Position numbers and translations under genes: made by a program. 64,000 nucleotides of DNA. Source: an uncultured virus (IMG/VR IMGVR_UViG_3300043961_000090). Taxonomy: Duplodnaviria; Heunggongvirae; Uroviricota; Caudoviricetes. The stretch lies in IMG/VR virus record IMGVR_UViG_3300043961_000090. One strand, given 5' to 3'. This document shows positions 39,295 through 62,601 of the stretch, piece after piece; within the stretch, counting starts at the first letter, position 1; every line of letters begins with the position of its first letter. The notes under the pieces were generated by a model. It had not been told where the DNA came from. It was given only the letters and a program-made list of their open reading frames with translations, and searched no databases.

Positions 39295-39349
39295 CTTTTA
39301 AACAACAACAGGCTAACTCGTTGATATTAACGATGTTAGCCTGCTTTTT

Positions 39350-39362
39350 GTTGGGATACCCG
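39350..39362. repeat. att core (prophage/ICE junction)
   Basis: Identical to 113-125; preceded by hairpin CAGGCTAAC...GTTAGCCTG (39309-39343). Confidence 0.8.
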
Positions 39363-39621: not shown

Positions 39622-41055
39622 ATGACATCAGTTAAAGCATTCATTCGTTCAAGTTCAAAGAAAGGAAAGAAAATTACTGTCAGATTACGCCTGACAGATG
39701 GTCGCAGAGGACAGATATTCTACAAGACAGCCCTTGAAGTTTTGCCCGATGACTGGGATAAAAAGACGGAGTTGTTAAAAGCCCGCAAGTTAATAGATCC
39801 CAGAGTTAGAAAAAACTTCAATTCAGCTCTCCTTGACTATAAGCGTGCCTTTGAAAACATCTATGAAGAAACCTATGACAAGTCTACTCTTAAAGATAAA
39901 AATCATCTTAATTTGCTCATTGACCAGAGAATTCATCCAGAAAAGTACAATCAGACAGACCACGAAGAAACTGTTAAAAGTTTTGGTTTTTTCGAGCAAA
40001 TACACCGCTTTTTAAAATACAAAAATTATCCCGAAAGCCACAGAAAGAGTTTTGATGTCCTTACCCGTCTACTCCACCGCTTTGAGGTTTTCAAACAGAT
40101 TTCCACTAACAACACATTCATTTTAGATCTTTCTACCATCAACTCGGATTTGCTTATAGATTTACGAGATTTCATCTTTAATGAATATATGCTTATAGGC
40201 AAACAAAGATTTCAAGGTATATATAAGCTATTTCCCGAACACAGAATCATCAAAAAGAGAGGTTATAACACTGTTATTCGATATATGAAACGACTTCGTA
40301 CCTTTATCAAATGGTGCCTAGTAGAAGACTTAATAAAGAAAGATCCTTTTGACAGATTTACTATCGGTGAGACTCATGACGGAAAACCATACTATATTAA
40401 CCTTGAAGAGCGTGATATCATAGCTGAAACAGATATAAAGGCGAAATGGGATCTTCTCTCTACAGAAGAGAAAAAACATATCAGCAAACATATAAGCGAT
40501 CATACTATTATCCGGCTTATCCAACAACGCGACGTCTTCATCTTTCAGTGTGTTGTAGGCTGTAGAGTTGGCGATTTGCTCTCCTTTACCCCTAGCAACA
40601 TCAATAACGAAGTATTAACATACGTTCCTCACAAGACTAAGGATAACATCCTGTCAACCAAAGTATCCGTACCACTTAATACACTAGCTAAAAACATTGT
40701 TAACAGATATATAGGCTGTAAAGATAACCATGGAAAGCTACTCCCATTTATCTCTGCTCAGAGATACAACAATGATATAAAAACCATTTTCACCCTCTGT
40801 GGAATTACTCGTGAAGTACCCGTATTGAATGCTGTATCAGGCGAATATGAAATGAAGCCATTGAATGAAGTTGCATCCTCACACATGGCTCGACGGACTT
40901 TCATTGGAAATCTCTACCGACAAGTAAAAGACCCAAATCTTATCGGAAAATTGTCTGGACATGTCGAAGGTTCTAAGGCATTTAACCGATACAGAGACAT
41001 TGATATGAGTATGAAGATGGAATTGGTCAGTCTACTCGACAGCCAACACAAATAG
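39622..41055 (+). CDS. int: Bacteroidetes-type tyrosine integrase
   Basis: N-terminal arm-binding domain, GCRVGDL, SSHMARRTF, LSGHVEGSKAFNRY. Confidence 0.93.
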   Translation: MTSVKAFIRSSSKKGKKITVRLRLTDGRRGQIFYKTALEVLPDDWDKKTELLKARKLIDPRVRKNFNSALLDYKRAFENIYEETYDKSTLKDKNHLNLLIDQRIHPEKYNQTDHEETVKSFGFFEQIHRFLKYKNYPESHRKSFDVLTRLLHRFEVFKQISTNNTFILDLSTINSDLLIDLRDFIFNEYMLIGKQRFQGIYKLFPEHRIIKKRGYNTVIRYMKRLRTFIKWCLVEDLIKKDPFDRFTIGETHDGKPYYINLEERDIIAETDIKAKWDLLSTEEKKHISKHISDHTIIRLIQQRDVFIFQCVVGCRVGDLLSFTPSNINNEVLTYVPHKTKDNILSTKVSVPLNTLAKNIVNRYIGCKDNHGKLLPFISAQRYNNDIKTIFTLCGITREVPVLNAVSGEYEMKPLNEVASSHMARRTFIGNLYRQVKDPNLIGKLSGHVEGSKAFNRYRDIDMSMKMELVSLLDSQHK

Positions 41056-41189: not shown

Positions 41190-41486
41190 ATGGAAATCAA
41201 AGAACTTGTTAAAGAGAAAGAAGAACAGATGATAGTTCTCACGGCCAAACAGCTGAATGACTTTGCTGAAGACTTAATAGAGAAACATCATAAAGATTTA
41301 ATTGCCATCATCAAAGAAGACAGGCAAGATAAGATAATCACACAATCTGAAGCAGCAGATCAATTACATATCTGTTCTAGAACACTGAAGAGATGGGCAC
41401 AAGCTGGACTAATTAATATCCTAAAGATAGGTGGGAAAAACATGTATTTTCAGAAAGATATTGATAGAATGCTAAGTAGTGAATAA
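41190..41486 (+). CDS. MerR-like HTH excisionase/regulator
   Basis: ITQSEAADQLHICSRTLKRW...KIGG..YF..DI. Confidence 0.85.
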   Translation: MEIKELVKEKEEQMIVLTAKQLNDFAEDLIEKHHKDLIAIIKEDRQDKIITQSEAADQLHICSRTLKRWAQAGLINILKIGGKNMYFQKDIDRMLSSE

Positions 41487-42231: not shown

Positions 42232-42990
42232 ATGGCAACAAAAATAAACAGGATCATGAAGCTATCCCTGCCAACCGGTGTGATGAACACATCGTGGCTA
42301 GAGAGTCAGGGACTTAGTCGGGCAGAGCAGGGGAAATATGTGAAGTCTGGTTGGTTAAAGCGTATATCCACAGGAATATATAAGTTTAGTAATGACACAC
42401 CTACGCTTTATGGTGCATTAGCATCCTATGAAAAACAAATGGGAGGAAATTATCGCATAGGAGCTTCTGCAGCACTGGAGATTCATGGTTTTACCCATTA
42501 TGTCGCTGTCGGAAAACCACAGACTTACGTGTTCACACCATTTAATCACCGCCTTCCCAAATGGATGACATCTTACACATGGGAACGAGCGTTAAGAGAA
42601 TTTTCCACCAAGACGTTCGATGGACATATAGGTGTGACACAAGTGAAATACGAAGGCGTAACATTACAGGTCTCTACTCCCGAACTTGCTATCATGGAAT
42701 GTCTGTTACTTGCTCCCGAATATTACGATTTTATGGATGTGTATTATCTGATGGAAATGCTAACTGCATTACGGGCCAATATGGTAACGAAACTATTAGA
42801 GGAATGTTCCTCCATTAAGGTAAAACGCCTATTCTTATACATGGCAGAAAAGGCAAAACATGCATGGTTCAAACGTTTGGATTTGTCAAATGTTACCTTG
42901 GGAAGCGGTCCTCGAAGCCTTACCAAAGGCGGAATAAAAGTTTCAAAATACAATATCATCATATCAAAAGAATTAGCAGATTATGAATAG
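42232..42990 (+). CDS. abiEi: Type IV TA antitoxin AbiEi
   Basis: YVKSGWLKRISTGIY, STPELAIMECL, SIKVKRLFLYMAEK. Confidence 0.88.
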   Translation: MATKINRIMKLSLPTGVMNTSWLESQGLSRAEQGKYVKSGWLKRISTGIYKFSNDTPTLYGALASYEKQMGGNYRIGASAALEIHGFTHYVAVGKPQTYVFTPFNHRLPKWMTSYTWERALREFSTKTFDGHIGVTQVKYEGVTLQVSTPELAIMECLLLAPEYYDFMDVYYLMEMLTALRANMVTKLLEECSSIKVKRLFLYMAEKAKHAWFKRLDLSNVTLGSGPRSLTKGGIKVSKYNIIISKELADYE

Positions 42991-43882
42991 CATATATAAA
43001 GACAAAGTACGATTGCTCCTTCGGATTCTTCCGATCATTACAGATGAGGAATGTTTTGCCATACACGGTGGAACTGCCATCAACCTGTTTGTAAACAATC
43101 TTTATAGACTTTCTGTGGATATAGATATTACCTACATTCCGTTGGAAGATAGGACATCAAGCATAAAACATATCAATGAAGCCTTAGAGAGGATCAGTTC
43201 CAGAATAACGGAACTTTTGAAAGGTGTGAGAGTGATCCCACGACTGGATATATGCAAGTTGACATGTGAATACCATGGCTGTCAGGTAAAAATAGAAGTT
43301 AACCAAACCAAGCGCGGTATCATTGGAGGCAAAACTGTAATAATGCCGTTATGTACAAAAGCTCAGGATATGTTTGAGATGGAAGTCGAGGCGAGAATAG
43401 TGCCTCTCACGCTGCTTTATGGAGGTAAGATTGCAGCTGCTTTATCACGACAGCATCCACGCGACATGTTTGATATCAGTCACATGAGTATTTCTTTGGC
43501 AGAAGCCAAATATGGGTTTATTTTTTGCCTCCTAGGCAGTGACAGGCCCATACACGAGTCCTTTGCTCCAAGCCTGATAGACCAGAAAGAGGCCATGGAA
43601 AAACAGTTTACAGGGATGTCAGACTTAGATTTTACTTATGAGGACTATAAAAAAACGAGACAAAAACTGATAGAAGATATCAAAAAGATCATAACCGAAG
43701 AGGATAAGCATTTTCTAATATCATTTGAGCAAGGAAATCCAAATTGGAAAGAATCAGACTATGAAGAATTTGCAGACTATCCGTCTGTAAAATGGAAACT
43801 TTTGAATTTGAATAAACTCAAACAGAATAATCCGAAAAAGCTGATGAAAGAAGCTAATCGGTTAAAAGAAATATTTGAATAA
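42983..43882 (+). CDS. abiEii: Type IV TA nucleotidyltransferase toxin AbiEii
   Basis: FAIHGGTAINLF..RLSVDID, GKIAAALSRQHPRDMFD. Confidence 0.92.
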   Translation: MNSIYKDKVRLLLRILPIITDEECFAIHGGTAINLFVNNLYRLSVDIDITYIPLEDRTSSIKHINEALERISSRITELLKGVRVIPRLDICKLTCEYHGCQVKIEVNQTKRGIIGGKTVIMPLCTKAQDMFEMEVEARIVPLTLLYGGKIAAALSRQHPRDMFDISHMSISLAEAKYGFIFCLLGSDRPIHESFAPSLIDQKEAMEKQFTGMSDLDFTYEDYKKTRQKLIEDIKKIITEEDKHFLISFEQGNPNWKESDYEEFADYPSVKWKLLNLNKLKQNNPKKLMKEANRLKEIFE

Positions 43883-44010
43883 AATGTAAGTTCTAATCTT
43901 TGAAAAAGAAAAAATTAAAGCCCTCATCCTTTTGCAAACTTTAGGAAATAGGTAGACGAACTATGTCTTGCCGTAATTAATACTTGATGGCAGGAAAGCC
44001 ATCGTGCTAT

Positions 44011-44498
44011 TTCCCTTATAGTTTTAAAAGAAAATAAAACATTCTTGCAACAAAATAATGTTCCATCTTCTGTCCCAGAGCTGCGGTTCTGGCTTAAAGC
44101 AAGAACCGCAGGAATATCAGCTTGGCGGATATTCGGCTTTAAAGGAAACAGTTCTGCTGTATGGGTAGGAAATCGGCTACCTCCCAGTGCAGGGCTTGGA
44201 GTGATGACATCGTCATGAACGGAAAGGACAAACGGGAGGTGTCGGATGAACATACCGATACAGATGTACCGTTTCCGTTTGGGAGTATGGTGGGCAAAGC
44301 CTCCATAGAATGCCTAAGCCACTCTCCCGAAGCCTGTCCGTATCCCTATGGACAGGTGCAAAGAGGTCTTTCGAGAATGTTCACAGTGAAACCGTAAATA
44401 TTCTCAAGATACTGCTTTGCAGGGCGGCAAGCATATTTTTCGCAATGAACATTAAATCTTAATAACTACTCGTTTTGAAATTAGAATATCTTCTCTAT
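44011..44498 (+). repeat. ~490-bp direct repeat copy 1, containing a structured RNA-like element (~44055-44440)
   Basis: Roughly 90% identical by eye to 46853-47342; many stem-loops; terminal hairpin plus T-tract. Confidence 0.9.
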
Positions 44499-44522
44499 AG
44501 GATAAGTGCATTTGATAAAAGT

Positions 44523-46094
44523 TCATAGATAGAGTTTAAAATATTTCCTGACCATTGCCTTTAGTTGGCCGGCCGTCAGATTTGCTAATCCGGTCTTCTC
44601 TATCAGTAAGAACTCTTCCTTGTTCCTGCCAATGACAAACTTACGTTCTATGCCATCAATATTAGCAAGCAGATGAAAATTGCCTTTGTATGCCTGTTCA
44701 ATATGGATATTCGAGATAGCATGACCGTTGATGGCTATAGCAGGCATATCCGCTTGTTCTTCACATTGACCTTCGGTCCATGTCGGTCGCAACTCGGCAA
44801 AGCCGATGCAAGCATCGCTTTGCTCTCGCTGCTTCGTCCATTCACCCCACTCTTTCAGATGACCAATGATCGTTGTCTCAACTCTGCCGATCCATTTTTC
44901 TGTAACACCATATTTTGTGGCTATCTTGCGGAATTGTTTCAATGAACCAGCAATATCTCGGATGATCGCGTCTGGTCTGCGTATGCCATTGTCACGTGCG
45001 AACTGGATAGCATCATCACGGGTAATGTTCCGGAGCTTTGCCCTAATATACAGGCAATGATCTTCGTTTGGCAAGAAGCCACCATGATCTATTATATAAG
45101 TAATGTCATAAGCAGGCGATAGTCGCCAGTTTCCATCTTCATTCATGATGAACGAGAAGTTCTTATTATGGTCATCAGTATTGTTGGCCAATATATTGAA
45201 TACCATGCGACGGAACACCTCCTGACAATCAGACTCAGGCAAATGGAGTTTTCTGCAAACTACGATCAACTGCTCATAACTGTCTGCATCTGGATAGATA
45301 GCAGCCAACGTCTGCGTATAGACTTTCTTACCGCCATCACGATCAAAACGTTTGGTCATAAAATGATTGTTGCCTTCAACAGGATATAACTCTGATGGCA
45401 TCATGTTGATTCCTGCAGTTGTGGCCAGTTCATAATAGGTCATCTCAAGTTCTGCAGAGCTATACTGCGAATTACCAAACTTCAGTAAATAGTAATCGTA
45501 GTCTTTCAAGTCTGAAATCTGACCACTGCGTATCTCACCGTTTTTGCGATTGAGAGCAATGATAGCCTTAGGTTGTCTGCCACCAGCCGATGTACCAACA
45601 GTCAGTAACGACTGCATGGTGATGGATTCTTCAGGCATGATGCGAGCATTTTCTCTTTCCATAAAGATGTGTTCTGCTAAGTCAACCAACGATTTCAAGT
45701 CTATCTTCTCAGCCCTACGCTCTCTCGATGTCTCTGGAAGGAACTCCAAGGCACCCATACCTCGTTTTCCTATGAATGAGAGCTTATCAAGAGGAGTTAT
45801 ATCTGCATTGGCCAGATGGTTCTGTTGGCGCCATAGGTCAAACAGTTGATTCCCCCAGGCATCAGGTAAGGAGTCAGCAATAAAGGCTGGCAACTTCTGA
45901 TAGATCTTGGCATCCTCACCCCAAACAGGCGTAAGTTCTCTTGTTCCATTTACTGGTGCAACCAAAGGAGAAATATTCAGTCCCTTCTTAACAAACTCTG
46001 GATTATACATGAAATAAGACAACCTGCGCCGTTCATCCCATGCCAGTCTTCCAATCTCTTCATCCCAAAGAATTACCCTTAATGATTTGATCAT
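44523..46094 (-). CDS. hipA: HipA-family kinase toxin with C-terminal extension
   Basis: DSLPDAWG, SAGGRQPK, NTDDHNKNFSF, LSPAYDI. Confidence 0.93.
   Translation of the reverse strand: MIKSLRVILWDEEIGRLAWDERRRLSYFMYNPEFVKKGLNISPLVAPVNGTRELTPVWGEDAKIYQKLPAFIADSLPDAWGNQLFDLWRQQNHLANADITPLDKLSFIGKRGMGALEFLPETSRERRAEKIDLKSLVDLAEHIFMERENARIMPEESITMQSLLTVGTSAGGRQPKAIIALNRKNGEIRSGQISDLKDYDYYLLKFGNSQYSSAELEMTYYELATTAGINMMPSELYPVEGNNHFMTKRFDRDGGKKVYTQTLAAIYPDADSYEQLIVVCRKLHLPESDCQEVFRRMVFNILANNTDDHNKNFSFIMNEDGNWRLSPAYDITYIIDHGGFLPNEDHCLYIRAKLRNITRDDAIQFARDNGIRRPDAIIRDIAGSLKQFRKIATKYGVTEKWIGRVETTIIGHLKEWGEWTKQREQSDACIGFAELRPTWTEGQCEEQADMPAIAINGHAISNIHIEQAYKGNFHLLANIDGIERKFVIGRNKEEFLLIEKTGLANLTAGQLKAMVRKYFKLYL
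44764..44842. repeat. 75-bp palindromic REP/MITE-like in-frame insertion in hipA
   Basis: GCAAAGCCGATGC-AA-GCATCGCTTTGC hairpin; CATT at both ends 75 bp apart; locally GC-rich. Confidence 0.6.
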
Positions 46095-46100
46095 ATCTGC

Positions 46101-46412
46101 TTATTGTTTAGAGTGTCTGATTCGTTGTGCCTTCTTCTCATCCTTACGGATAAGATAGGGTGACTCCGGCAACTCAGGCAGCAAGTCATCCAGAGAATTG
46201 ATCTGACCGACAACCTTCAGCAGAAGGATGAAAGTGGACAGCGACAGATTTCCTGCCGTACCATTTTCAAACTTATGAATGGTAGTCAGTCCGATACCCG
46301 ATTGCTCTGCAACCTCCTTTTGGGTGAGATTGCAGCGCATCCTGTATTCCTTGAAGCGAGTACCAAGCAATCGTACCAGTTCAGGTGTGGAATATTCATA
46401 TAGGTCTGCCAT
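46101..46412 (-). CDS. hipB: XRE-family HTH antitoxin (HipB-like)
   Basis: LTQKEVAEQSGIGLTTIHKFENG; directly upstream of hipA. Confidence 0.88.
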   Translation of the reverse strand: MADLYEYSTPELVRLLGTRFKEYRMRCNLTQKEVAEQSGIGLTTIHKFENGTAGNLSLSTFILLLKVVGQINSLDDLLPELPESPYLIRKDEKKAQRIRHSKQ

Positions 46413-46852
46413 AATTCTTATTTTATACATTATTATAGTGATATTTATATCACTATTTTGTATTTTAAATTCATTTTATTGATATTTATATGTGCAAATA
46501 TACACGTTTTTTTGAATCAAACGAATTTTTTCGGGGAAATATGTGATGATCAGCCAACTTTTTAACAGTCCAAGGTATAAAGTGGAAATTTGAATTAAAA
46601 TGTAAAGAATACATATAACTAACTCATTTGCGGAATTCTAATTAAGGGAAGATATAAGAAGTTCTGTATAGCAATAGAAGAATTTCATCTGGATTTATCT
46701 CGTTCTTATTATCTTAGTTGTCTCTTGGGTAGCCGATTAGTGTCAGAATCTCTTCTTTTTCCTTTTTTTATAGCAGGAATAGGAGAATTTATTAGTTGTA
46801 AGAATTGTCAAAACTGGAAATACATTTCTGATAAAAGTTCATTATATTATTC

Positions 46853-47342
46853 TTCCCTTGTAGTTTTTAAAAGAAAATAAAACATTCTTGCAACAAAAAC
46901 AATGAGCCATCCTCTGTCCCAAAGCTGCGGTTCTGGCTTAAAGCAAGAACCGCAGGAATATCAGCTTGACGGATATTCGGCTTTAAAGGAAACGGTTCTG
47001 CTGTATGGGTAGGAAATCGGCTACCTCTCAGTGCAGGACTTGGAGTGATGACATCGTCATGAACGGAAAGGACAAACGGGAGGTGCCGGATGAACATACC
47101 GATACAGATGTACCGTTTCCGTTTAGGAGTATGGTGGGCAAAGCTCCTATAGAATGTCTTAACCACTCTCCCGAAGCCTGTCCGTGTCCCTATGGATAGG
47201 TGCAAAGAGGTATTTCGAGAATATTCACAGTGAAACCGTAAATATTCTCAAGATACTGCTTTGCAGGGTGGCAAGCATATTTTTTACAAGAAACATTAAA
47301 TATTAACATCTACCCATTTGGAAATTAGAATATTTTCTCTAT
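46853..47342 (+). repeat. ~490-bp direct repeat copy 2, containing a structured RNA-like element (~46898-47285)
   Basis: Homologous to 44011-44498, with several substitutions that preserve pairing on the + strand. Confidence 0.9.
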
Positions 47343-47433: not shown

Positions 47434-50400
47434 TCAACACAACTTTCTCAGTATCTCATTCACCATTTTCTCATACCACGATGCTATCTGAAGAGTAAAA
47501 TGACCATGAGAAAGATCAAAGGACGGCATAGAATTGATTTTCTTCAGTTCAGGAAATTCATTATGACAGAATTTATTACGAATTTCAAACAATAAATCCC
47601 AGTCCCCTTGATTAATATATCCCTTTCTTTTCAACCAATTCAAATAGGCTTCATGCTGGACATTAGGACCTTTTACAGTGCCTTCATTAAATAACTTGGT
47701 TTTATCTTCTGGGGAGATGACTGACAAAATACTCTTTTCCAATTCAAAAACCTTGCTGAATACTCTTTCCCGGTACTGTTCATAATCCTCCATTTCTGCA
47801 ACTAATTTATCAAAATCAATTTTCTCTTCTTTAAAATACGGGAGAAGATTTTGCATTCTTTCGTCATGAAGGAATCGAATAAAGAAGGAATAATCTTTTC
47901 TTTTCCTATGTGCCACAATAGTCCGATCATATAGACGTGCTTCCATATCTTCTTCCTCTTTAAGTGGATTTTTTGCAGAATTTGGATCTATATCATTAGG
48001 AGAGATTGTAAATGTTGAAATTCCTGAGTCAGAAGTAGATTTATTCTTTTTCGTGTTCATCTCCAAGAATACATGCCGTATCATCATCAACAAAATCCGG
48101 TCTTCCGTACAATAATAGCGGATTTTCTTTTCTTTCTCAGCTACAGCCTTTTTGAAAATTACTTTTAGCTGTTTTTCTGAGATTCTCTCCTTTTCTTTTT
48201 TGCATTGCTCAATAACATCATCGAGTATTGATTCATAATAATATTTTATGGGCCTATCTTCTGTTGGATCCACATTCACGACACACTCGTAAGGCCTATC
48301 CTTGAATATCGTATAATATCGTTTTTTATGATAAAATGGTTGTAGGTCTTTCAGCCACATTCCAAGCAATCGAGAATAGTTATAGGTCTTTTCACCATCA
48401 GAAATAGTTACTTTTTCTTTCAATCTAGTGATTAAAGCACTATCAAATAAATTAGTTGGCAGATCCGCAGGTTTAGGAACTTGTTTTGTAGAAGTAGAAT
48501 TTTGAGTTTGTACCGATTTCAACCAATTGTCGAAATCATGGACTAATTTCAAATTATTATCTAATTCCGAATTATCGTCTGCTTTAATCCATTTTTGATA
48601 AGTTAGGGGTACTCCTATTTCAGGCATACGAATCTCCGTTTCATTCTTTTTTTTCTTTTCATCCCATTTTGTGAAATAGAATGTCTTATGTAGCCAGCCC
48701 TTCTTTAATGATAAGTATTCTTTATAAAAATCCAAGGTTGAATTTGTCCTTTGACGATCCAAATCTGCAAGGAATGGGTGTCCCTTATCCTTATCCAATA
48801 AGTTCAAATCTCGCTTGCATAACTCCCAAAAGAGTTGCTTCTTTTCATTATTTGCATAAAGAGCTAGGCACTCCTGTAATAGGTCATAATAAAATGAAGT
48901 AATTTTAGTCTTTACATCACGATCTATCACTAGTTTGATAATATCACGAGCTAATTCTGACGCCATCTCGCCAACCTTTAGTTGTCTTCCCTTTTCTATA
49001 TCTTTTATCCGCTTCTTACAGTCTGTAGCAGCTTCCTTAATGCGCTCTTTGAAAGAGTAATTATTTCCAGTATCCTCAACATTTAGCCAATAGTCAATAA
49101 TACGACTCGGAATTTGTCGGCAATCCAATCCTTCAGGTTTCAATATAGTATCAAGATGAAGTTTTCTTTGATGGAATTCTGCCTGATATTCGTCATAGTC
49201 TTTTTTAGTTCTGTAATTTAGAGACTTTTTAGAATCAGTTGATATTCTTTTTAATAAACTGTAACAGGGTAACTGTTCCTTAATCTTATCTATCCATTTT
49301 CTGTTCAGTAAGCAATACTTGTTTTTATTCAAATAATTTTTAATTAGATTATAAGCGGATCCAGGCGAGAGCAACTCCAGTAATACAACCTTTGGTAATT
49401 CTGATATGCTCAAAAAAGCCTGTGGATTTTCCTTGTTAAAGGATATCTCTTGATTACTAAAAGCTAATGCAATTTTATTTTCTACAATATTATAATGAGG
49501 AGCATACTGAGTGAATTTTACTTCCGTACCTTTAAATAATTCTATGAAATCCTTTTCTTCAATGATTTTCTTCTGTACATCATCATTATAAGTTGATAAT
49601 TTCCCAAAAGTTTTAACATCTTTGACAATGCTTCTATTCTTTTCCTCAGGCATTTGCCCGAGCACACGTTTAGAATATGACTTTGTTTCAACTTTACCTA
49701 AATGAATTTGAAAATCATATTTAAAATTTTCTGAAGCATCAAGGAAGTTCAAAGCAAATTCTGGGAATCTGTCCCGACTTCGTTTTAATGTTGAAATGTC
49801 TTTCAAATAAGATTCATAGTCCTTGTCATCATATTTCGCATTCAAGGTTGGTTTGAATTGCTCCTGGTCATTTTTACCTAGGGTATTATATAATTCCTTC
49901 GGGGCACGTTGCAGATAGTTCAATGCATCCATAAGTACAGCCTGTTGAGGATTTTGGCTGTTCAGTTTATTATGAGGAAGTTTTACGCATAACACGGAAA
50001 AGGTCTCTCTTGTAGCCTGAAAATCCGGAGTTTCGGAATTTTTGAATCCACTGATCTTATTAAAGAAATGAAAAGCATTTTCTTTATCCAGAAATAAGCA
50101 ACAGAAGAATACCAAGCCTATTGTCGTCACTTGGTTCGTCTCGTCTACAAATAATTCCGGCCCGATTTTCTTTCTTACATTATCGAAACATTTATCTGAA
50201 ATCACATCTTGAAATCTTTTTTGGGCAAGTTTTACTGCCACTTCAAACAACTCTCTAAGTTGAAGTACTAACTCATTTTTAATATTTACTTTTCGTTGAG
50301 TGCCTGTATCTATGGAAAAATAATGAGTATATTCATTCCTAAAATCACACAGTTCTTTAAAGGCCATTTTTAGGAAATCAGCCAACTTCCCGATATCCGT

Positions 50401-50715
50401 ACCAGTGGCATCATCATCCATTCCTATATTTCTTCTGAAATCACTGGAAAAAGCATTTGCCAATGGAAGATAACGGCATAGATTCAGGTAGATTATTCCA
50501 CCAGGATCAGTAAAAGAAAAAGATTCCGTTAAGAAGGTATTACCTATATTACTATCATCACCCAATTTTGGTTTATTAAATTTTCTGGACATCTCTTGAG
50601 AAATCATAAAGACATTATGTCTCGCAATGTTCAGATATGCTCCAAAATATTCCGGAGTAGTTTTGATTGTATAGGTTTTTGATATCCTATGAAGTGTGTT
50701 TTTGTTTTTTATCAT
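47434..50715 (-). CDS. cas13b: Type VI-B CRISPR effector Cas13b
   Basis: 1093 aa; FGAYLNIARHN N-terminus; two HEPN RxxxxH motifs (RNEYTH, RNKFCH); DRFPEFALNFLD, GEMASELARDI; adjacent 36-nt repeat array. Confidence 0.93.
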   Translation of the reverse strand: MIKNKNTLHRISKTYTIKTTPEYFGAYLNIARHNVFMISQEMSRKFNKPKLGDDSNIGNTFLTESFSFTDPGGIIYLNLCRYLPLANAFSSDFRRNIGMDDDATGTDIGKLADFLKMAFKELCDFRNEYTHYFSIDTGTQRKVNIKNELVLQLRELFEVAVKLAQKRFQDVISDKCFDNVRKKIGPELFVDETNQVTTIGLVFFCCLFLDKENAFHFFNKISGFKNSETPDFQATRETFSVLCVKLPHNKLNSQNPQQAVLMDALNYLQRAPKELYNTLGKNDQEQFKPTLNAKYDDKDYESYLKDISTLKRSRDRFPEFALNFLDASENFKYDFQIHLGKVETKSYSKRVLGQMPEEKNRSIVKDVKTFGKLSTYNDDVQKKIIEEKDFIELFKGTEVKFTQYAPHYNIVENKIALAFSNQEISFNKENPQAFLSISELPKVVLLELLSPGSAYNLIKNYLNKNKYCLLNRKWIDKIKEQLPCYSLLKRISTDSKKSLNYRTKKDYDEYQAEFHQRKLHLDTILKPEGLDCRQIPSRIIDYWLNVEDTGNNYSFKERIKEAATDCKKRIKDIEKGRQLKVGEMASELARDIIKLVIDRDVKTKITSFYYDLLQECLALYANNEKKQLFWELCKRDLNLLDKDKGHPFLADLDRQRTNSTLDFYKEYLSLKKGWLHKTFYFTKWDEKKKKNETEIRMPEIGVPLTYQKWIKADDNSELDNNLKLVHDFDNWLKSVQTQNSTSTKQVPKPADLPTNLFDSALITRLKEKVTISDGEKTYNYSRLLGMWLKDLQPFYHKKRYYTIFKDRPYECVVNVDPTEDRPIKYYYESILDDVIEQCKKEKERISEKQLKVIFKKAVAEKEKKIRYYCTEDRILLMMIRHVFLEMNTKKNKSTSDSGISTFTISPNDIDPNSAKNPLKEEEDMEARLYDRTIVAHRKRKDYSFFIRFLHDERMQNLLPYFKEEKIDFDKLVAEMEDYEQYRERVFSKVFELEKSILSVISPEDKTKLFNEGTVKGPNVQHEAYLNWLKRKGYINQGDWDLLFEIRNKFCHNEFPELKKINSMPSFDLSHGHFTLQIASWYEKMVNEILRKLC

Positions 50716-50900
50716 TTTGTATTGCTTTTTTAGATCAACTAAGTTATCACCAAAGATACAAAAATCAAAACAAATTACATTATGAATTTTAGATTTTCTG
50801 ATTAGTTCCTAATAAAATATATTGCTCGGTTTTGGAGTAGACATATTGTCTTCTGAAAAACTGGCAATATATGTTTTAAGCTTCTGCAGATCATTGAACA

Positions 50901-51596
50901 GTTGTTTATACCCTACAAAATTAAGGCAGCTACAACTTCAGTACGTGTATGATTCATATAAAAGCGGTTGTTTATACCCTACAAAATTAAGGCAGCTACA
51001 ACAATGACAACACTTTTTCTCATAGTTCCACCGTTGTTTATACCCTACAAAATTAAGGCAGCTACAACGGAATGACGACATAATCAATATGCCTTTCGGT
51101 TGTTTATACCCTACAAAATTAAGGCAGCTACAACACTTTAATTCTCAGGATTCCACGACACCATGTTGTTTATACCCTACAAAATTAAGGCAGCTACAAC
51201 GATGGAACATACAACATCATCGTAGACAACGTTGTTTATACCCTACAAAATTAAGGCAGCTACAACTGATCTGCATGAGGAGAAACGAACTCCGGAGTTG
51301 TTTATACCCTACAAAATTAAGGCAGCTACAACACTCTCGTAACCATTATACTGGATCTACAGGTTGTTTATACCCTACAAAATTAAGGCAGCTACAACAA
51401 ATTCGTATCTGACCAGATGATTCATTTCGTTGTTTATACCCTACAAAATTAAGGCAGCTACAACAAAGAATATTGCAACAATGCAAGTAATCATGTTGTT
51501 TATACCCTACAAAATTAAGGCAGCTACAACGCAATCAAAAGAATTGCAAGAGTTAGGGGTGTTGTTTATACCCTACAAAATTAAGGCAGCTACAAC
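50901..51596 (-). CRISPR. CRISPR array: 11 identical 36-bp repeats, 10 spacers of 30 bp
   Basis: Repeat on - strand GTTGTAGCTGCCTTAATTTTGTAGGGTATAAACAAC, period 66 bp; GTTG...CAAC ends typical of VI-B. Confidence 0.98.
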
Positions 51597-53181: not shown

Positions 53182-53541
53182 ATGCTTCGAGTAAACTTCA
53201 AAGTATTTCTTTGCAAAGTAAAGAACTCTTGCAAGAAAATTTCAGTAAAGCGTGTCGCCACAGTGGCTTGTATGGTACTCTTCTGTACCCTTGATATTTG
53301 TGCCCAAAGTCATGGAGCGGGAGGCTTCACAAAGGCCACTTCAGAGATTTCTTCGTATCAGACTCCTGTCAGTAATCTGATGAAGGCTATTGCCGCCGTC
53401 ATCGTACTTGTCGGAGCGTTCAATGTCTATTTTAAAATGCAAAACGGAGACCAGGATGTCAAGAAGACCATCATGCTGACCATCGGCGGTTGCGTAGCAT
53501 TCATCGCCATGTCAGAAGCCCTTCCATTGTTCTTTAAATAA
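53182..53541 (+). CDS. traE: TraE-like (VirB2-like pilin, DUF4134)
   Basis: AIAAVIVLVGAFNVYFKMQNGDQDVKK. Confidence 0.85.
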   Translation: MLRVNFKVFLCKVKNSCKKISVKRVATVACMVLFCTLDICAQSHGAGGFTKATSEISSYQTPVSNLMKAIAAVIVLVGAFNVYFKMQNGDQDVKKTIMLTIGGCVAFIAMSEALPLFFK

Positions 53542-53618
53542 GGACATGGGAATCATACATTCAGGAGGGGGACTCTTACAAAGTATGTGTCCTTTCCTGT
53601 CTTTTGAAATCACGATCA

Positions 53619-53906
53619 ATGGAGATGAATTTTAATGGTTATCCTGTTTTCAAGGGACTTCAGAAGCCTTTGGAGTTCATGGGTATCCGCGGACGTTTTC
53701 TGACTTATGCCGCCATGGTCATCGGTATCTCTTTTATCGGCTATATCCTCTTTTCTATCCTCGTTGGAAAACTTGCTGGATTCCTTGCCATGACAGGCAT
53801 TACTGCCATGGGCATCCTCGGTATTTTCATCAGACAGAAGAGCGGACTGCACAATAGAAAACGGAGCCGGGGCATCTTCGTCTACCATCACCTTTTCTCA
53901 CGATAG
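53619..53906 (+). CDS. traF: TraF-like (DUF4133)
   Basis: YPVFKGLQKPLEFMGIRGRF plus two TM helices. Confidence 0.8.
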   Translation: MEMNFNGYPVFKGLQKPLEFMGIRGRFLTYAAMVIGISFIGYILFSILVGKLAGFLAMTGITAMGILGIFIRQKSGLHNRKRSRGIFVYHHLFSR

Positions 53907-53910
53907 AACA

Positions 53911-56814
53911 ATGTTTGGAAAAAAGAAAAGCAAAATCGACGGTATCTTTGCCGAACTGGAAGACATCAAGGACGATAAGGGCAAGCTTCTCAATACGGTA
54001 TTGTTCTCCTGTAGGGGTGATGCTTCGGTACTTATCGAGATGGAGAACCCCGTCCAGCAGTATTCGACGGATCCAGCTCTCTATATAGGTTACATGGATG
54101 TGTTGGGTAATATCGTGGAGACCCTTGGAGAAGGCTTTGCCTTGCAAAAGCAGGACATTTTCTGTCGCCAGCGTTATCACCACCCTGTTACCTCGGATAT
54201 GGAATACCTGACAAAGAGCTATTTCCGCTATTTCGAGGGCCGGCCCTATACGGAGATCCGTACCTTCCTGATCCTCACGATGGAGGGACAGAAGAGCACT
54301 TTTGTTAAATATGACGAGAAGGCCTGGAAAGCGTTTCATGTCAAGGTCAGCAAGGTTATTGACATCCTCAAGGAGCATGAAATCCGGTACCATAAGCTCA
54401 GCAAGGAAGAGGTCAACGAATACCTTCATCGTTATATGGCCTGTCATTTTCGAAAGGGATCTTTTGCCATGCAGAACTTCAAGGCCTCTGATGAAAGTCT
54501 GCGGATGGGCGCTGATGCGGTCCAGTCCTTCAGTCTGGTTGATGTCGACGAGATCGACCTTCCTTCCTTTATCAAGCCCTATCTGACCGTTCCGGTCAAC
54601 GGGTATACCATCGCCACTGACCTCCTGGCATTCCTGGCAGAGATTCCCGATACCCACTGCGTCATCTATAATCAGGTTCTTCAGGTTCCCCAGCAGCGGA
54701 AGCTGCTGAGAAAACTGCAGGGCAAGGCCAAGCGTCACGGCAGCATGCCTGATCCCAGCAATAAGATTGCCAAGTCTGATATTGAGCAAGTCCTCAATGT
54801 CCTTGCCACGGAGAGCAAGATGCTCGTCAATACCAACTTCAATATCCTGGTCTGTTGTCCGCAGGAGAAGCTCACCTCAGTCAGCTCATACATTGAGACC
54901 CGTCTTTATGAGTGCGGTATCCTGCCCTCCCGGTCAGCCTATAACCAGCTGGAACTTTTCCTGGACTGTTTCCCCGGTAATGCCTATTCCTTCAATCCCG
55001 ACTATGACTTGTTCCTGACCATGAACGATGCCGCTCTCTGCCTTTTCTATAAGGAGCATCTGAAACACAGTGAGGACACCCCGCTGAAAACATGGTACAC
55101 CGACCGTCAGGGACTGCCGGTGTGCATCGACATTACCGGCAAGGAAGGGTCAGTGAGATATACGGACAACAGTAATTTTTTCTGCATCGGGCCAAGTGGC
55201 AGCGGAAAGAGTTTCCATATCAATTCCGTTGTCCGCCAGTTGCTGGAACAGGATACCGATGCCGTCATGGTCGATACGGGAGATTCATACGAGGGTATCT
55301 GTGCCTATTTCAAGGGGACTTATATCACTTACAGCAGAGAGCATCCCATCTCCATGAATCCTTTCAAGATCACAAAGGAGGAGTATGACCAGAATTTCGG
55401 AGAGAAGAAGAACTTCCTGAAAAGTCTCATTTTCCTTATTTTCAAGGGGAACGAGGCACCGACAAAGATAGAAGACAAGATTATCAACCAGACCATCGTG
55501 GAATACTACCAGGAATACTTCCATCCCTTCAGGGAATATACCGAAAAGGAAAGAGAACAGCTCCGGGAGCGGCTGCTGCTGGAAGATAAAAAGAATGGGG
55601 CATACGAACACTATGAAGAAAAAATTGAAGAGAAGTACGCAGATCCCTATCGTATTCCGGAACTTGAAAAGGGAACTGCTGGAGGAGATGCTCCTCAAAG
55701 CAGGGATCATGCGGTGGAAGAAGAATACACCTCTCAGGAGAAGAAGCACCATGCCAAGGTCGTCCGTCAGGTAAACAAACTGCACGGTCTGGCTAATGAT
55801 GATGCTGCTACCGAAGGAGAGAAGGCTGCTGCCAGCAGACAGCTCCTCCGCCTGATGCCGGAGCTTATTGAAGGCAGGTATATGATGCGGATAGAGAAAA
55901 AGATAGACCGCATGGAGGAACAACGACGGAAGATGCATGTCGGGCGGCTGAACTTCAACAGCTATTATGAATTTGCCCTGGAGCGTATCCCTCAGATCAT
56001 GAAGGACAGCAGTATCAGTTTCGACATCAATGATTTTTCTGCTATACTGGAACAGTTTTATAAAGGCGGCGAGCTGGAATCTACGCTGAACAACGATGCT
56101 GATGCCAGCCTTTTCAGTGAACGGTTCATCGTTTTTGAGATTGATAAGATCAAGGATGATCCTGTCCTGTTCCCCATCGTCGTGCTCATCATCATGGATG
56201 TCTTCCTCCAGAAGATGCGTCTGAAAAAAGGACGCAAGGCGCTCATCATCGAAGAGGCCTGGAAAGCCATCTCCTCACCTACCATGGCCGAATATATCAA
56301 GTACCTCTATAAAACCGTAAGGAAGTTCCATGGCATCGCCGGTGTCGTCACCCAGGAGTTGAATGACGTGATTGACTCCCCTATCGTGAAGGAAGCGATC
56401 ATCAATAATTCAGACATCAAGATCCTTCTCGACCAGAGCAAGTTCAGGGACAGGTATGACGAGATTTCTGCCATCCTCGGTCTCACGCCCGTACAGCGGC
56501 AGCAGATCTTCACCATCAATAATCTCCGGAACCATGAGGGGAGAAACTATTTCAAGGAAGTTTGGATTGCCCGGGGGCAGTATTCTGATGTCTATGGCGT
56601 GGAGGAACCGCCTGAATGCTACTGGGCCTATACCACGGAACGGGCGGAAAAGGAAGCCCTCAAAATTTATGAAGCCCGGTATGGCGGTATCCAGACGGCC
56701 ATCACCAGGATAGAAGAAGACCGCAGGAAGTCAAAGACAGACACCTATCTCGACTTTGCGCGGCAAGTGAATGAACACGGAAAGGTTATGAGCTTATGGA
56801 AGCAAAACGATTAG
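53911..56814 (+). CDS. traG: TraG VirB4-family conjugation ATPase
   Basis: GPSGSGKSF, LIIEEAW, LYKTVRKF. Confidence 0.93.
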   Translation: MFGKKKSKIDGIFAELEDIKDDKGKLLNTVLFSCRGDASVLIEMENPVQQYSTDPALYIGYMDVLGNIVETLGEGFALQKQDIFCRQRYHHPVTSDMEYLTKSYFRYFEGRPYTEIRTFLILTMEGQKSTFVKYDEKAWKAFHVKVSKVIDILKEHEIRYHKLSKEEVNEYLHRYMACHFRKGSFAMQNFKASDESLRMGADAVQSFSLVDVDEIDLPSFIKPYLTVPVNGYTIATDLLAFLAEIPDTHCVIYNQVLQVPQQRKLLRKLQGKAKRHGSMPDPSNKIAKSDIEQVLNVLATESKMLVNTNFNILVCCPQEKLTSVSSYIETRLYECGILPSRSAYNQLELFLDCFPGNAYSFNPDYDLFLTMNDAALCLFYKEHLKHSEDTPLKTWYTDRQGLPVCIDITGKEGSVRYTDNSNFFCIGPSGSGKSFHINSVVRQLLEQDTDAVMVDTGDSYEGICAYFKGTYITYSREHPISMNPFKITKEEYDQNFGEKKNFLKSLIFLIFKGNEAPTKIEDKIINQTIVEYYQEYFHPFREYTEKEREQLRERLLLEDKKNGAYEHYEEKIEEKYADPYRIPELEKGTAGGDAPQSRDHAVEEEYTSQEKKHHAKVVRQVNKLHGLANDDAATEGEKAAASRQLLRLMPELIEGRYMMRIEKKIDRMEEQRRKMHVGRLNFNSYYEFALERIPQIMKDSSISFDINDFSAILEQFYKGGELESTLNNDADASLFSERFIVFEIDKIKDDPVLFPIVVLIIMDVFLQKMRLKKGRKALIIEEAWKAISSPTMAEYIKYLYKTVRKFHGIAGVVTQELNDVIDSPIVKEAIINNSDIKILLDQSKFRDRYDEISAILGLTPVQRQQIFTINNLRNHEGRNYFKEVWIARGQYSDVYGVEEPPECYWAYTTERAEKEALKIYEARYGGIQTAITRIEEDRRKSKTDTYLDFARQVNEHGKVMSLWKQND

Positions 56815-57530
56815 TATTATTCCTGTTTGTCCTGTTGCTTACTCTGGGTACAAGGGCCGGATTCCGGGTTGTTACAGATCCCTGGACGACAGCTGCCGTT
56901 ACGGCCAATGCCGCAGCCCAGAAAGCCATCGAGAGCAAGCATAACCAGCGGTTGGACTCCATCTCAGCAAAACAGAAGAAACTGATGGCTTATACTGCGG
57001 CAATGGCCAGCATCCGGGAGATGTATCAGTTTACGCTGCAAAATGTGGAAGGCTTCGGACCGGAAAGCCAGTATTACAAGGAAATTTTCTCCTGTGCCGC
57101 AGACATCCTCACCGATGTGCCCACCGTGCTGAAAGCTATAGCTAATAAGCCTGTCAAGAACTATATCCTGTGCCTGAATGAGCTGGCCGATGTCACTGAG
57201 GAGACTGAAGGGCTCGTCCATGACTTCAAGGATATCGTCAACAATGGCAGGATACGGCTTCCCGACATCCCCGTCATCAAAAAGACCATTCCGGAGAAGG
57301 AAAAGAATGACGGCTACAACCTGCTGGACCGCTATGAGCGTCTGACCCTGGCCAACAAGATTTACTCCCATCTGCTGGAAATGAAGTACAAGATGGATGC
57401 TATGGTGATGATGTGCCACTACTGTGGATGGAGTACGGTCTTTTTTGACCTTGATCCGGAGACCTGGGCGAGCTGTTTCACCGGCGCGAATATGGTGAGC
57501 GGACTGATCAATGACTGGAACGGACTTTAA
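56796..57530 (+). CDS. Exported conjugation protein
   Basis: Signal peptide, VVTDP motif; in tra operon. Confidence 0.65.
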   Translation: MEAKRLVLFLFVLLLTLGTRAGFRVVTDPWTTAAVTANAAAQKAIESKHNQRLDSISAKQKKLMAYTAAMASIREMYQFTLQNVEGFGPESQYYKEIFSCAADILTDVPTVLKAIANKPVKNYILCLNELADVTEETEGLVHDFKDIVNNGRIRLPDIPVIKKTIPEKEKNDGYNLLDRYERLTLANKIYSHLLEMKYKMDAMVMMCHYCGWSTVFFDLDPETWASCFTGANMVSGLINDWNGL

Positions 57531-57533
57531 CGT

Positions 57534-58208
57534 ATGAAGGCAAGACTATTCTTTCTTTTAGTGGCAGTGACGGCCATCCTGCCCCTCCAGGCTTTTGATA
57601 CGCCGCATGATCTTCCGACTATTGAGGCGCTCATCAGCCTTCACAAGCTCATCAAGGGTAATGAAGACCAGGCCCTGGTAAGGGTGACCGCCAGTTTCGG
57701 AGAGCAGAGCATTGTCACCAAAGGAGCCACAGAGTTCAATGCTGCCCGGTCAACCCTGGACAGCAAGCTCTCCAACGGTTACAGTGCCATACTCCTTGCC
57801 AGTGCGCTGGCCGGCACGGGCACCGACCTCTACAAGCTCATTGACGAGTATGCACGGTTTACCTCTTCCATGGCCCGGACCCTGTTCCACAAGCCTATGT
57901 GTGCCTGGTACTATACGGAGGCCGGTTATGCCTGTGCCCGGGAGATGAAAAATATCCGGAAGATGGCTGTCACCCTTTCCGCCGGCAGCATCAACCTCAT
58001 GAAAGCCTCCATGGATGAGAAGCTCGACCTTGTCAATCAACTCAGGGAGTATATTGACAACATGAAGGCGATCATCGAAGAAGCATACGCCTGGTGCAGT
58101 GTCGTAATAGTCGGCGGTTTTCATTATGACTATATCTGGGACATCCTGAACTCCGATGTAACGGACGGCATTGTAAAAGGAGTGATCAGCAAATGGTATA
58201 ACCTATAA
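57534..58208 (+). CDS. Exported conjugation protein
   Basis: Signal peptide; in tra operon. Confidence 0.65.
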   Translation: MKARLFFLLVAVTAILPLQAFDTPHDLPTIEALISLHKLIKGNEDQALVRVTASFGEQSIVTKGATEFNAARSTLDSKLSNGYSAILLASALAGTGTDLYKLIDEYARFTSSMARTLFHKPMCAWYYTEAGYACAREMKNIRKMAVTLSAGSINLMKASMDEKLDLVNQLREYIDNMKAIIEEAYAWCSVVIVGGFHYDYIWDILNSDVTDGIVKGVISKWYNL

Positions 58209-58220
58209 AACAAGAAGAAT

Positions 58221-58895
58221 ATGAAACGATTTCTGATTTTAGCTCTGTTTTTACTTTCCCTGAAGGTAACCGGCAGGGCACAGTCCGTGCAGCATGACTC
58301 CCAGAAGGAGAAGCAGTGGCGGTCGATGGAGACCGGTCCGTGGGATTTTGATCCGGGATGGTATTACTATTTCCTCCACAAGGATTACAGTGGAGCTTAT
58401 ACCAAATGGAAATGGCACGGCTTCCACTCCGGACTGCGTGTGTATTTCAGGGAGAGCAAGTCTCATGTCAAGACCATTATGCCCGACCGTGCCGCCGCCG
58501 AGGAGGAACAGAGAGCCGGTGAGAAGAAGGCGGAGGAAGAACGGCAGGAAATCAAACCCCTGTACCAGGAAGAGCTTGCCCGTGCAGCTGACCGTTCCGT
58601 GGACCTGGTCTATGCTGATTTCAAGGATGACTACAACCGGATGCAGGATGATATCGATGACGGTCTTGTCTATTGCATGAAGAAAAGCAAGGGCCGTCTC
58701 AGCTATCAGGTCACCCAGCTCCAGAATCAGAATGAACTGATCTGCAACAGTATCGGATACATCCATAAGACCGGCCTCGCCTACGGACTGGAGAATGTCA
58801 GGAGGGAGAAAGCCTATATCGAATATCGGAAGCAGATGCAGGAGCTGGTCAGCCGTGTTGCCCATCTGGTCGGTATGGCACAGAGCTATTACTAA
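58221..58895 (+). CDS. Exported conjugation protein (DUF5045-like)
   Basis: KQWRSMETGPWDFDPGWYYYFLHKDYSGA. Confidence 0.7.
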   Translation: MKRFLILALFLLSLKVTGRAQSVQHDSQKEKQWRSMETGPWDFDPGWYYYFLHKDYSGAYTKWKWHGFHSGLRVYFRESKSHVKTIMPDRAAAEEEQRAGEKKAEEERQEIKPLYQEELARAADRSVDLVYADFKDDYNRMQDDIDDGLVYCMKKSKGRLSYQVTQLQNQNELICNSIGYIHKTGLAYGLENVRREKAYIEYRKQMQELVSRVAHLVGMAQSYY

Positions 58896-58905
58896 AGGAT
58901 ACACT

Positions 58906-60231
58906 ATGATGGATTTGCTACTGGATATCTGTACCCGTCATCTGTTGACCATGGGCCTTCCGGCTATTGACCAGAGTCTGGACAAACTGCTTGTGACCAT
59001 GGAGACCTTCCCAAGGTCTGCCGTTCTGGGCAGTGCCGTCGGCTATGCCCGGATCCTGGGGCTCTGCCTTGCCCTCTGTGTGGGTAGCTATGAGTGCTGG
59101 ATGATGATGCTCGGCCGCAGGGCCATGGATGTGATGAAACTCCTCCGTATCATCGGGCTCAGTATGTGCATCTCCTCGAGTACCTGGATATGCAATGAGC
59201 TTGCCGTTCCGGGAAAGGCTCTGGAGAATACCACTAAGCAGATGGCTGTCAGCAAGAACAGGGAGGTGGCGGCCCTGGAGCTGAAAGTGGCGGAAAAACA
59301 AGACGGCTATCTCAGACGGCTGAGGGCCATACAGGACAGCCTTTCTACGGCTAAGCAGGTCCAGGCCATCGGCGAGGATGCTCACTGGTGGGACAAGCTC
59401 ATCTACAATATGCAGAACCTGGGCAGTACCATCAATGACTATGCCCAGCGGGCAGCAGTCCTCACGGAGACCAAAGCCTCGGAATGGATCAATGACATCA
59501 TCCGTTTTATCGGGGAGCTGATCTTCCAGATGTCCTATTACGGTATGCTGGTGGCCCAGCGCATCTTCCTGACTATCCTGGCGACCTTTGCCCCTATCAT
59601 GTTTGCCCTGAGCATCGTGCCGCCTTTCAGCAATGCCTGGTCACAATGGATGTCCAAGTACCTCAGCCTGACACTATGGGGCTTTGTGGTCTATATCTGT
59701 CTTTACTATGTGGACTTCATCCTGATGTATAATCTTACGGAGGACATCACCGCCTATGACACCCTTCTCAAAGGACAGGTGACGAACTGGGGTTCTATCG
59801 GTGCGCTCGGCCTGCAGGGTATCGGCTCCAACTGTATGTATGCCATGGGCATGCTGGTCGGGGCATACGTCATCCGATTCGTGCCGGAGGTCGCCTCATG
59901 GCTGATTCCGGGCGGTGTAAGCTCCAGTGCAGGGACGACGGCCGGAGCGGTATCTGCCGGTATCGTCAGCGGTGCCGTTTCAGGAGGCACAAGTGCCGCT
60001 GTAGGAGTTGGAGCTGCGGTAACCACAGGTTCGGCAACTGCCGTGGGGGCTGCCCAGCAGGCTCACAGTGACGGCGGCGGCCTGATCCGGGAAGCCGGAA
60101 GGACCATCGCCTCTCAGACCTTTGTCGGACAGGCCTACAGCCATGGGGCGGACAGTGCCCGCTCCATGCATAATGTCGGTACCAGTGACTCGAACTATAA
60201 GCGGGGTGGAACTCCGGATGGCAAGAGTTGA
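58906..60231 (+). CDS. traJ: TraJ-like (VirB6-like) inner-membrane protein
   Basis: Multiple TM helices, FAPIMFALSI..WSQWMSKYLSLTLW, Gly/Ala-rich tail. Confidence 0.8.
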   Translation: MMDLLLDICTRHLLTMGLPAIDQSLDKLLVTMETFPRSAVLGSAVGYARILGLCLALCVGSYECWMMMLGRRAMDVMKLLRIIGLSMCISSSTWICNELAVPGKALENTTKQMAVSKNREVAALELKVAEKQDGYLRRLRAIQDSLSTAKQVQAIGEDAHWWDKLIYNMQNLGSTINDYAQRAAVLTETKASEWINDIIRFIGELIFQMSYYGMLVAQRIFLTILATFAPIMFALSIVPPFSNAWSQWMSKYLSLTLWGFVVYICLYYVDFILMYNLTEDITAYDTLLKGQVTNWGSIGALGLQGIGSNCMYAMGMLVGAYVIRFVPEVASWLIPGGVSSSAGTTAGAVSAGIVSGAVSGGTSAAVGVGAAVTTGSATAVGAAQQAHSDGGGLIREAGRTIASQTFVGQAYSHGADSARSMHNVGTSDSNYKRGGTPDGKS

Positions 60232-60277
60232 TCCAAAGGAAGCCTCTTCAGAAAAGTAGATTTGAATTTTATATTGT

Positions 60278-60877: not shown

Positions 60878-60895
60878 TCTCTAATCCATTCAAGT

Positions 60896-62583: not shown

Positions 62584-62601
62584 AGAATAACAAACAAAGA
62601 T

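Follow-up and report, generated by a model that had tools for sequence, protein, structure and literature searches.

A duplicated, strongly folded non-coding element, probably a large RNA, at module junctions in the defence cargo of a Bacteroidales conjugative element

The DNA considered here (hereafter the window) is a stretch of 64,000 nucleotides recorded as IMG/VR virus IMGVR_UViG_3300043961_000090, an uncultured member of the Caudoviricetes. It consists of a prophage up to ~39204, followed by a Bacteroidales conjugative element in which the order is integrase, xis-like gene, AbiEi/AbiEii, a first copy of a non-coding repeat, hipA/hipB on the - strand, a second copy of the repeat, cas13b on the - strand with its CRISPR array, and the tra genes. 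This repeat, referred to below as the element, is a real, uncatalogued and rare structured element, probably a large non-coding RNA (ncRNA), located at the joints of a defence island that undergoes reshuffling.

Layout and coding potential of the repeat pair

The two copies lie in the same orientation and can be aligned over 490 bp (44011-44498 with 46853-47342) at 92.7% identity, which confirms the two ~490-bp direct repeats reported in a preliminary description of this locus; no third copy was found within the window. Each copy (44010..44498 and 46851..47342, both on the + strand) is composed of an AT-rich leader, a folded core and an AT-rich tail, with GC contents of 21%, 48-50% and 20-24%, respectively. 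The core, of ~370-375 nt, spans 44059..44433 on the + strand in copy 1 and ~46902-47278 in copy 2. Homology between the copies begins and ends at two boundary motifs, a left one at 44008..44022 (+ strand) and a right one at 44487-44500, which are alike at 11 of 14 positions. The absence of a terminal inverted repeat, also stated in the preliminary description, holds, the only candidate being an imperfect subterminal one of 13-17 bp in copy 2, and no transposase was found in the element. Across the six distinct copies recovered in all (see below), the core is 96.5% identical versus 81.5% for the leader and 88.7% for the tail, with 31 of 367 variable columns in the core versus 37 of 125 at the ends (p 4e-8) and not a single indel across 357 core columns.

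The element contains open reading frames (ORFs) of 78 amino acids (aa) on the + strand and of 109 and 112 aa on the - strand. The 78-aa frame has accumulated 6 synonymous versus 16 non-synonymous changes and is interrupted by a stop in copy 2. More generally, all six frames display stops and an excess of non-synonymous change, none being under purifying selection, and the two - strand ORFs have no match in Pfam; the earlier verdict that no credible ORF is present is thus upheld. The ORFs are common to the copies because the core is free of indels in all six. In addition, every copy has a 36-codon ORF (44059-44169; 49 codons in one) that begins where the RNA is presumed to start; it would encode a hydrophilic peptide and has no clear sign of selection.

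Predicted fold and transcription signals

The predicted folding energy of the core is -151 kcal/mol in copy 1 and -154 kcal/mol in copy 2, corresponding to z-scores of -5.7 and -6.95, and was equalled by none of 100 shuffled sequences. The stable and complex fold, above background, that is expected of a large structured RNA is therefore present. In copy 1, the + strand is predicted to form six robust arms (44081-44111, 44112-44134, 44144-44276, 44278-44331, 44332-44357 and 44358-44420), the third of which is a long arm with purine-rich internal loops. The six arms are common to both copies, with mean pair probabilities of 0.85-1.0 along the main helices, and the five stems named in the preliminary description are all found among the high-probability helices. 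The closing helix of the core comprises 11 pairs in copy 2 (46902-46913 with 47265-47278) and is weak in copy 1. Two further predicted + strand features are invariant across all copies, namely a palindrome of 8 nt left unpaired by the fold (44137-44144) and a candidate pseudoknot of 7 bp that would join 44094-44100 to 44136-44142. The last arm is capped by a UGAAA loop (44387..44391, + strand), which we take to resemble a T-loop. The helix joining 44172-44188 to 44232-44247 is maintained despite three different local variants, and 99.1% of cells in the alignment are paired versus 36-46% when the partners are slid, in what is a partly circular test.

The signals that would delimit a transcript are weak. 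A Bacteroidota -7-like box, CATTCTTG, lies on the + strand at 44040..44047 and again at 46883-46890; the preliminary description was right about its presence, but it matches only four of the six specified bases of TAnnTTTG, which we take to be the consensus. This box is predicted to pair with the far end of the element, with a probability of 0.95 in copy 2 (46885-46890 with 47287-47292) and 0.64 in copy 1. The terminal hairpin with T-tract described earlier likewise exists on the + strand (44413..44440; 47257-47285 in copy 2), but at -6.5 kcal/mol it is weak, it competes with the main fold, and it was not called by a terminator scan. Pieces of the element occur in the assembled contigs of four runs (probably DNA), with 8-38 differences each, which shows presence only.

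Relatives, module switching and neighbouring genes

Scans with exact patterns recovered the element from one Bacteroidaceae genome (G003, at locus L023) and from two metagenome contigs (L031/L032 and L033/L034), the latter of which is 99.9% identical to L023. Scans of viral contigs with DNA patterns and protein queries added one contig identical to copy 1; 17 other viral-contig stretches, as well as L020 and L124, proved to be chance matches. The six distinct copies thus obtained are 89-97% alike and always reside in related integrase-xis cargo regions. G003 itself has two copies, both at one locus and none elsewhere. Searches for distant relatives by blastn found none in phages or plasmids, and BLAST at E up to 1e-3 gave matches in 5 of 401 genomes of the family and 2 of 401 of the order, full-length only in G003, the others being matches of 29-64 bp that do not include the core. 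A covariance model (R1) recovered the element from 1/101, 1/141, 1/39 and 1/81 genomes of overlapping sets, each time G003; its reach is short because it was built from six similar sequences, and, the genome sets being samples, these results read as not found rather than as absent.

The element is also missing from related gene neighbourhoods. No match was obtained near 29 loci encoding homologues of the 141-aa helix-turn-helix (HTH) protein or near 17 xis-like loci, and a search for Cas13b in 29 genomes of the genus gave no match. None of 21 HipA loci and 7 AbiEii loci (a 79%-identical AbiE locus of G003 and six others) has a copy, which implies that AbiE and HipA systems do not require the element.

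No catalogued family corresponds to the element. The Rfam scan, which the preliminary description had named as a check on novelty, found nothing in the window at the gathering score and, at E up to 10, no more than four chance matches between 43800 and 47500, all of at most 17 bits; Rfam 15 presumably holds the Bacteroidales-2 motif. No covariance-model match was obtained to ROOL, GOLLD, OLE, raiA, HEARO, group I or group II introns, tmRNA or RNase P. Domain V of group II introns carries an AGC or CGC triad, domain VI a bulged A, and the intron starts with GUGYG; the domain-V-sized 33-nt hairpin at 44373-44405 starts with GAGA and has no G-U triad pair, so this identity was rejected. Literature searches found no description of the element, with the supplements of motif-discovery papers, which were outside their scope, being a place where a related motif could be held. 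The word "Bacteroidales" has no occurrence in the main text of PMC5737381, and a preprint on a P. gingivalis integrative and conjugative element (10.64898/2026.08.04.741601) has none of noncoding, ncRNA, Cas13 or hipA.

Comparison of the loci indicates where the cargo changes. In L023 the order is integrase-xis module, copy A, an AbiE remnant, copy B and an RloB-like gene oriented towards copy B, and in L031 it is integrase-xis module, copy A, hipBA, a copy, and cas13b-CRISPR. To the left of the element, L031 equals L023 for 2000 bp with a single mismatch; to the right of copy A, over 30-120 bp, L031 is 92-97% identical to the window and 27-47% to L023. With the left flank of one locus and the right flank of the other, the module switch in L031 lies at the element. 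That the copies mark switch points had been missed in the preliminary description, as had the AbiE and HipA loci that are free of the element. Within a locus, the copies have interior variants in common while their ends follow the flanks, a pattern that is consistent with recombination and gene conversion between copies. In L023 the AbiE pair was removed by an internal deletion joining 42166 to ~43767, and both copies were retained. This deletion took nearly all of AbiEi/AbiEii between short identical stretches (L023 1080-1089), so that the promoter region now adjoins the final codons of AbiEii; an intact pair, 79% identical, is carried elsewhere in G003 (L112).

As for the genes around the copies, the conjugative element starts with a tyrosine integrase (39622..41055, + strand; PF00589) and an Xis-like HTH_17 protein (41190..41486, + strand), which shares 36% identity with the protein encoded before the first copy in L023 and L031. 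The integrase gene stands back to back with a second one that ends the prophage (38044-41055 together), which suggests that prophage and conjugative element integrated in tandem at the same site. A stretch of ~400 bp of AT-rich non-coding sequence 3′ of xis (41480-41900; L023 1855-2260) is homologous between two different integrase-xis modules, at best 72% identical over 184 bp, and is a candidate for a conserved cis site. It is followed by the AbiEi-AbiEii pair (42232..43882, + strand), a type IV toxin-antitoxin and abortive infection system, and by a terminator-like hairpin (43985-44004). Between the copies lie hipA (44523-46094, - strand), whose stop is 25 bp from copy 1, and a hipB-like HTH gene (46101-46430, - strand). 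The predicted HipA (523 aa) reaches ~100 aa further at its C terminus than most of its relatives (frames of 418-467 aa), and similarly long frames occur in two genomes (511 and 516 aa). A short direct repeat brackets the hipBA block (44504-44526 and 46818-46842; 14 identical bases in a 23-bp alignment, a score reached by 3 of 1000 shuffles) and overlaps the hipA stop codon; it is possibly an insertion scar.

On the other side of copy 2, cas13b (47434..50715, - strand; NF038190 over cut-off, PADLOC) ends 92 bp from the element and lies next to a type VI-B array (50901..51596, - strand) in which 11 repeats (36 nt each) alternate with 10 spacers (30 nt each). The whole type VI-B locus (47434-51596) is compact, with no evident Csx27/Csx28-like ORF of at least 80 aa between cas13b and the array. 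Relative to the window, cas13b of L031 is 99.9% and hipA 96.2% identical, and the two L031 spacers seen are spacers 1 and 2 of the window array. Spacer 6 (51267-51296) is identical at 29 of 30 bases to the prophage DNA primase gene (2730-2759), and the remaining nine match at most 20 of 30 bases within the window. Transcription of the array from the - strand, as for cas13b, would give a crRNA complementary to the primase mRNA, which would thus target a transcript of the neighbouring prophage. The tra genes of a Bacteroidetes conjugative transposon follow (53182..63540, + strand; TraG, K, M and N over cut-off, a TraJ-like protein below it). ARAGORN found no tRNA or tmRNA in the window. Further stable folds, scored with 20 shuffles each, lie at 53101-53300 (z -4.7), straddling the start of the first tra gene, and at 46201-46400 (z -4.5), inside hipB.

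Interpretation and comparison with known systems

The reading that we favour, with a probability of about one half, is that the element is a stand-alone + strand ncRNA gene whose product acts in trans, and whose duplicated DNA also provides a homology anchor for the exchange of defence modules. Such a self-contained gene would yield a new multi-branched ncRNA of ~370 nt on Bacteroidales integrative elements, from a seat in the cargo hotspot directly downstream of xis. The folded RNA would most likely serve as a protein-binding scaffold or decoy that helps the mobile element in defence or maintenance, possibly as a homo-oligomer held together by its unpaired palindromic segments, and it is not tied specifically to HipA, AbiE or Cas13b as a partner. 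As DNA, the 90-97% identical copies could act as homology anchors at which recombination swaps or deletes AbiE, hipBA, cas13b-CRISPR and rloB; where two copies enclose a toxin-antitoxin pair, that pair would be expected to resist looping out.

The choice of strand is suggested by base composition. Positions left unpaired in the folds of both strands are 70% purine on the + strand (p 1.6e-4 and 3.2e-4), and loops of structured RNAs tend to be purine-rich, a likeness that favours a + strand RNA; the T-tract, too, stands 3′ of the + strand core. The preliminary description had relied on another argument, namely that at least three differences between the copies produce G-U pairs on the + strand only, which would suggest selection on RNA structure. 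The three differences do exist (44184, 44353 and 44379), but the set is not one-sided, as the same copies also differ at 44150 (an A-C mismatch in copy 1) and 44368 (a C-U mismatch). When helices neutral with respect to strand are used, the ratio of G-U to A-C is 3:3, 8:6 or 10:6 (p 0.23-0.66). A permutation test per copy appeared to favour structure on both strands (0/25 each); this test counts shared changes repeatedly, and it was not borne out by a test on independent events, in which 26 independent transitions are marginally gentler on the - strand (p 0.035). On the basis of the neutral-helix counts and of the independent transitions, the inference of strand from G-U pairs was rejected. 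What stands of the earlier inference is a large, uncatalogued, non-coding and strongly folded element in a defence island.

A number of observations weigh against a + strand ncRNA gene. The - strand fold is equally or more significant (z -5.8 and -7.4), folds with DNA parameters are also significant (z -5.2 and -6.0), and neither the G-U versus A-C counts nor the fixed mismatches (4:4) pick a strand; on the + strand, the 26 transitions are not milder than expected by chance (p 0.28). The alignment of homologues, in which the preliminary description had proposed to look for covariation, holds two-sided change in none of 124 pairs, among six copies that are ~96% alike in the core, and the conservation of the core could reflect gene conversion instead of selection. 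The -7-like box is gone from two of the six copies (the post-xis copies of L023 and L031), and it falls short of the promoters of AbiEi, hipB and cas13b, which score 6/6. The terminator hairpin excludes the base of the last arm, at a cost of 7 and 14 kcal/mol relative to the best fold. Neither a ligand nor a target is indicated: for eight loop segments examined, pairing with the window never exceeded that of shuffled sequences; the same loops do not pair with the tra transcripts above chance. Complementarity to the CRISPR repeat or spacers stays at window background (best local scores 6-11), on which ground a tracr-like or anti-repeat RNA of Cas13b is ruled out. Finally, no distant homologue appeared in the BLAST and covariance searches, unlike what is seen for the widespread ornate RNAs.

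A possible but unlikely alternative is that the element works as folded single-stranded DNA during conjugative transfer, either as a promoter and priming signal like Frpo or as a large integrase site like attC. The significance of the DNA folds on both strands, the pairing of the -7-like box with the far end in the copy 2 fold and the switching of modules at the element would all agree with such a role. So would the arrangement of Frpo1 and Frpo2 of the F plasmid, which, according to excerpts of PMC9849209, are long non-coding repeats, likewise 92% identical, separated by ~5 kb that include a toxin-antitoxin pair. On the other hand, the neighbours mostly point towards the element, with three of the four downstream flank types (hipA, cas13b and rloB) convergent, the cargo is defence and not anti-defence, neither a relaxase nor an oriT was located, and purine-rich loops on one strand together with six-way branching fit RNA better.

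It is rather unlikely that the element is a non-autonomous mobile element or mini-cassette whose insertion and excision at its short end motifs depend on a trans-acting enzyme (an integrase, or one of the IS110 or IS200 type), the fold being a recognition, guide or bridge RNA. The ends do have a motif of ~14 bp in common, the flanks (three types on the left, four on the right) diverge at these motifs or close to them, and the window has no copy at the post-xis position occupied in L023 and L031, though the 400 bp upstream are homologous. Yet a candidate empty site at ~41960-42000 is matched in score by 176 of 500 shuffles, the window has the end motif about as often as chance predicts (4 matches versus 3.0 expected, the one at 52172 being rejected as a cassette boundary at chance level), and the two right flanks of L023 remain alike for ~30 bp past the motif (1/300 shuffles). 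Moreover, the copies are confined to this cargo region, two per locus and none dispersed in G003, and Rfam assigns them neither to HEARO nor to an intron family. With no terminal inverted repeat, dispersed copies or supported empty site, identity with an insertion sequence or a miniature inverted-repeat transposable element was rejected. A bolder proposal, which we regard as quite unlikely, is that the copies represent a new class of large folded cassette ends (RNA or transferred single-stranded DNA) of Bacteroidota conjugative elements, which the tyrosine integrase of the conjugative element or a host factor would read in order to capture and shuffle whole anti-phage systems; if true, AbiE, HipBA, Cas13b-CRISPR and RloB would belong to an integron-like system with a recombination signal the size of a ribozyme.

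Regulation in cis appears improbable. In this case the element would be an RNA switch between the terminator and the last arm, tuning read-through that is antisense into the 3′ ends of hipA, cas13b and rloB or sense into AbiE, or else a regulator of the tra operon similar to RteR. The two folds do overlap and differ by those 7-14 kcal/mol, and the short distances from the copies to the ends of hipA and cas13b (25 and 92 bp) would suit such a switch, as would the position of RteR in the Bacteroidales conjugative element CTnDOT, a regulatory RNA placed just downstream of the excision operon in the excerpted account of PMC3809561, like the first copy in L023 and L031. Against it, the downstream genes have mixed orientations, related HipA and AbiE loci do without the element, and RteR differs in being 90 nt long, in a single copy and with a known target, whereas the element is ~370 nt long, duplicated and devoid of a detectable antisense target. 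A non-functional remnant of an intron, guide-RNA scaffold or origin, kept alike by duplication and gene conversion, is very improbable: its rarity, its decayed promoter in some copies and substitutions that are not clearly structure-preserving would fit, but a decaying sequence would hardly keep an indel-free core so much better conserved than the ends, nor both copies after loss of the intervening cargo.

Several known systems are similar in part. The ldr-rdl (LDR) type I toxin-antitoxin loci of E. coli are direct repeats of ~500 bp that give rise to a highly folded RNA whose 5′ and 3′ ends pair. The element differs from them in having neither a conserved hydrophobic small ORF nor a frame under purifying selection, and a type I toxin-antitoxin repeat of the LDR or SIB kind was rejected for want of a conserved small hydrophobic toxin ORF. 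In integrons, attC is a folded repeat between exchangeable genes beside a tyrosine recombinase; compared with it, the element is several times longer and is branched where attC is a single hairpin, its cassettes have both orientations and their own promoters, and no IntI-type enzyme was identified. To Frpo1/Frpo2 and their ColIb-P9 homologues it is related by the plan of folded repeats a few kb apart on a conjugative element with an enclosed toxin-antitoxin pair. The Frpo stem, in contrast, rebuilds -35 and -10 boxes and drives co-oriented genes of the leading region, an orientation that most neighbours of the element, being convergent, do not have; its defence cargo and multi-branched fold set it further apart.

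To our knowledge, large structured bacterial RNAs are few, and those that have been solved are ribozymes, guides or RNA machines. A new large folded RNA in an anti-phage island would be a target for probing and cryo-EM, for which the sequence available here would allow production by in vitro transcription. Its seat at the joints of swappable modules offers a testable route by which Bacteroidales conjugative elements could reshuffle their defences, among them a Cas13b system with an array directed against the adjacent prophage. The closest likeness is to the orphan RNAs ROOL and GOLLD, and also OLE, raiA, LOOT and Bacteroidales-2, which are, like the element, large, non-coding, multi-branched and borne by mobile elements. 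In OLE and GOLLD, palindromic segments form intermolecular kissing loops, as reported in the consulted parts of 10.1101/2024.12.08.627333, and the element too has unpaired palindromic segments. It is smaller than ROOL, for which an excerpt of PMC5737381 gives a mean length of 581 nt, and it differs from the ornate RNAs as a whole in residing in conjugative defence cargo with no tRNA in the window, in being very rare and in occurring as paired copies at the joints between modules.

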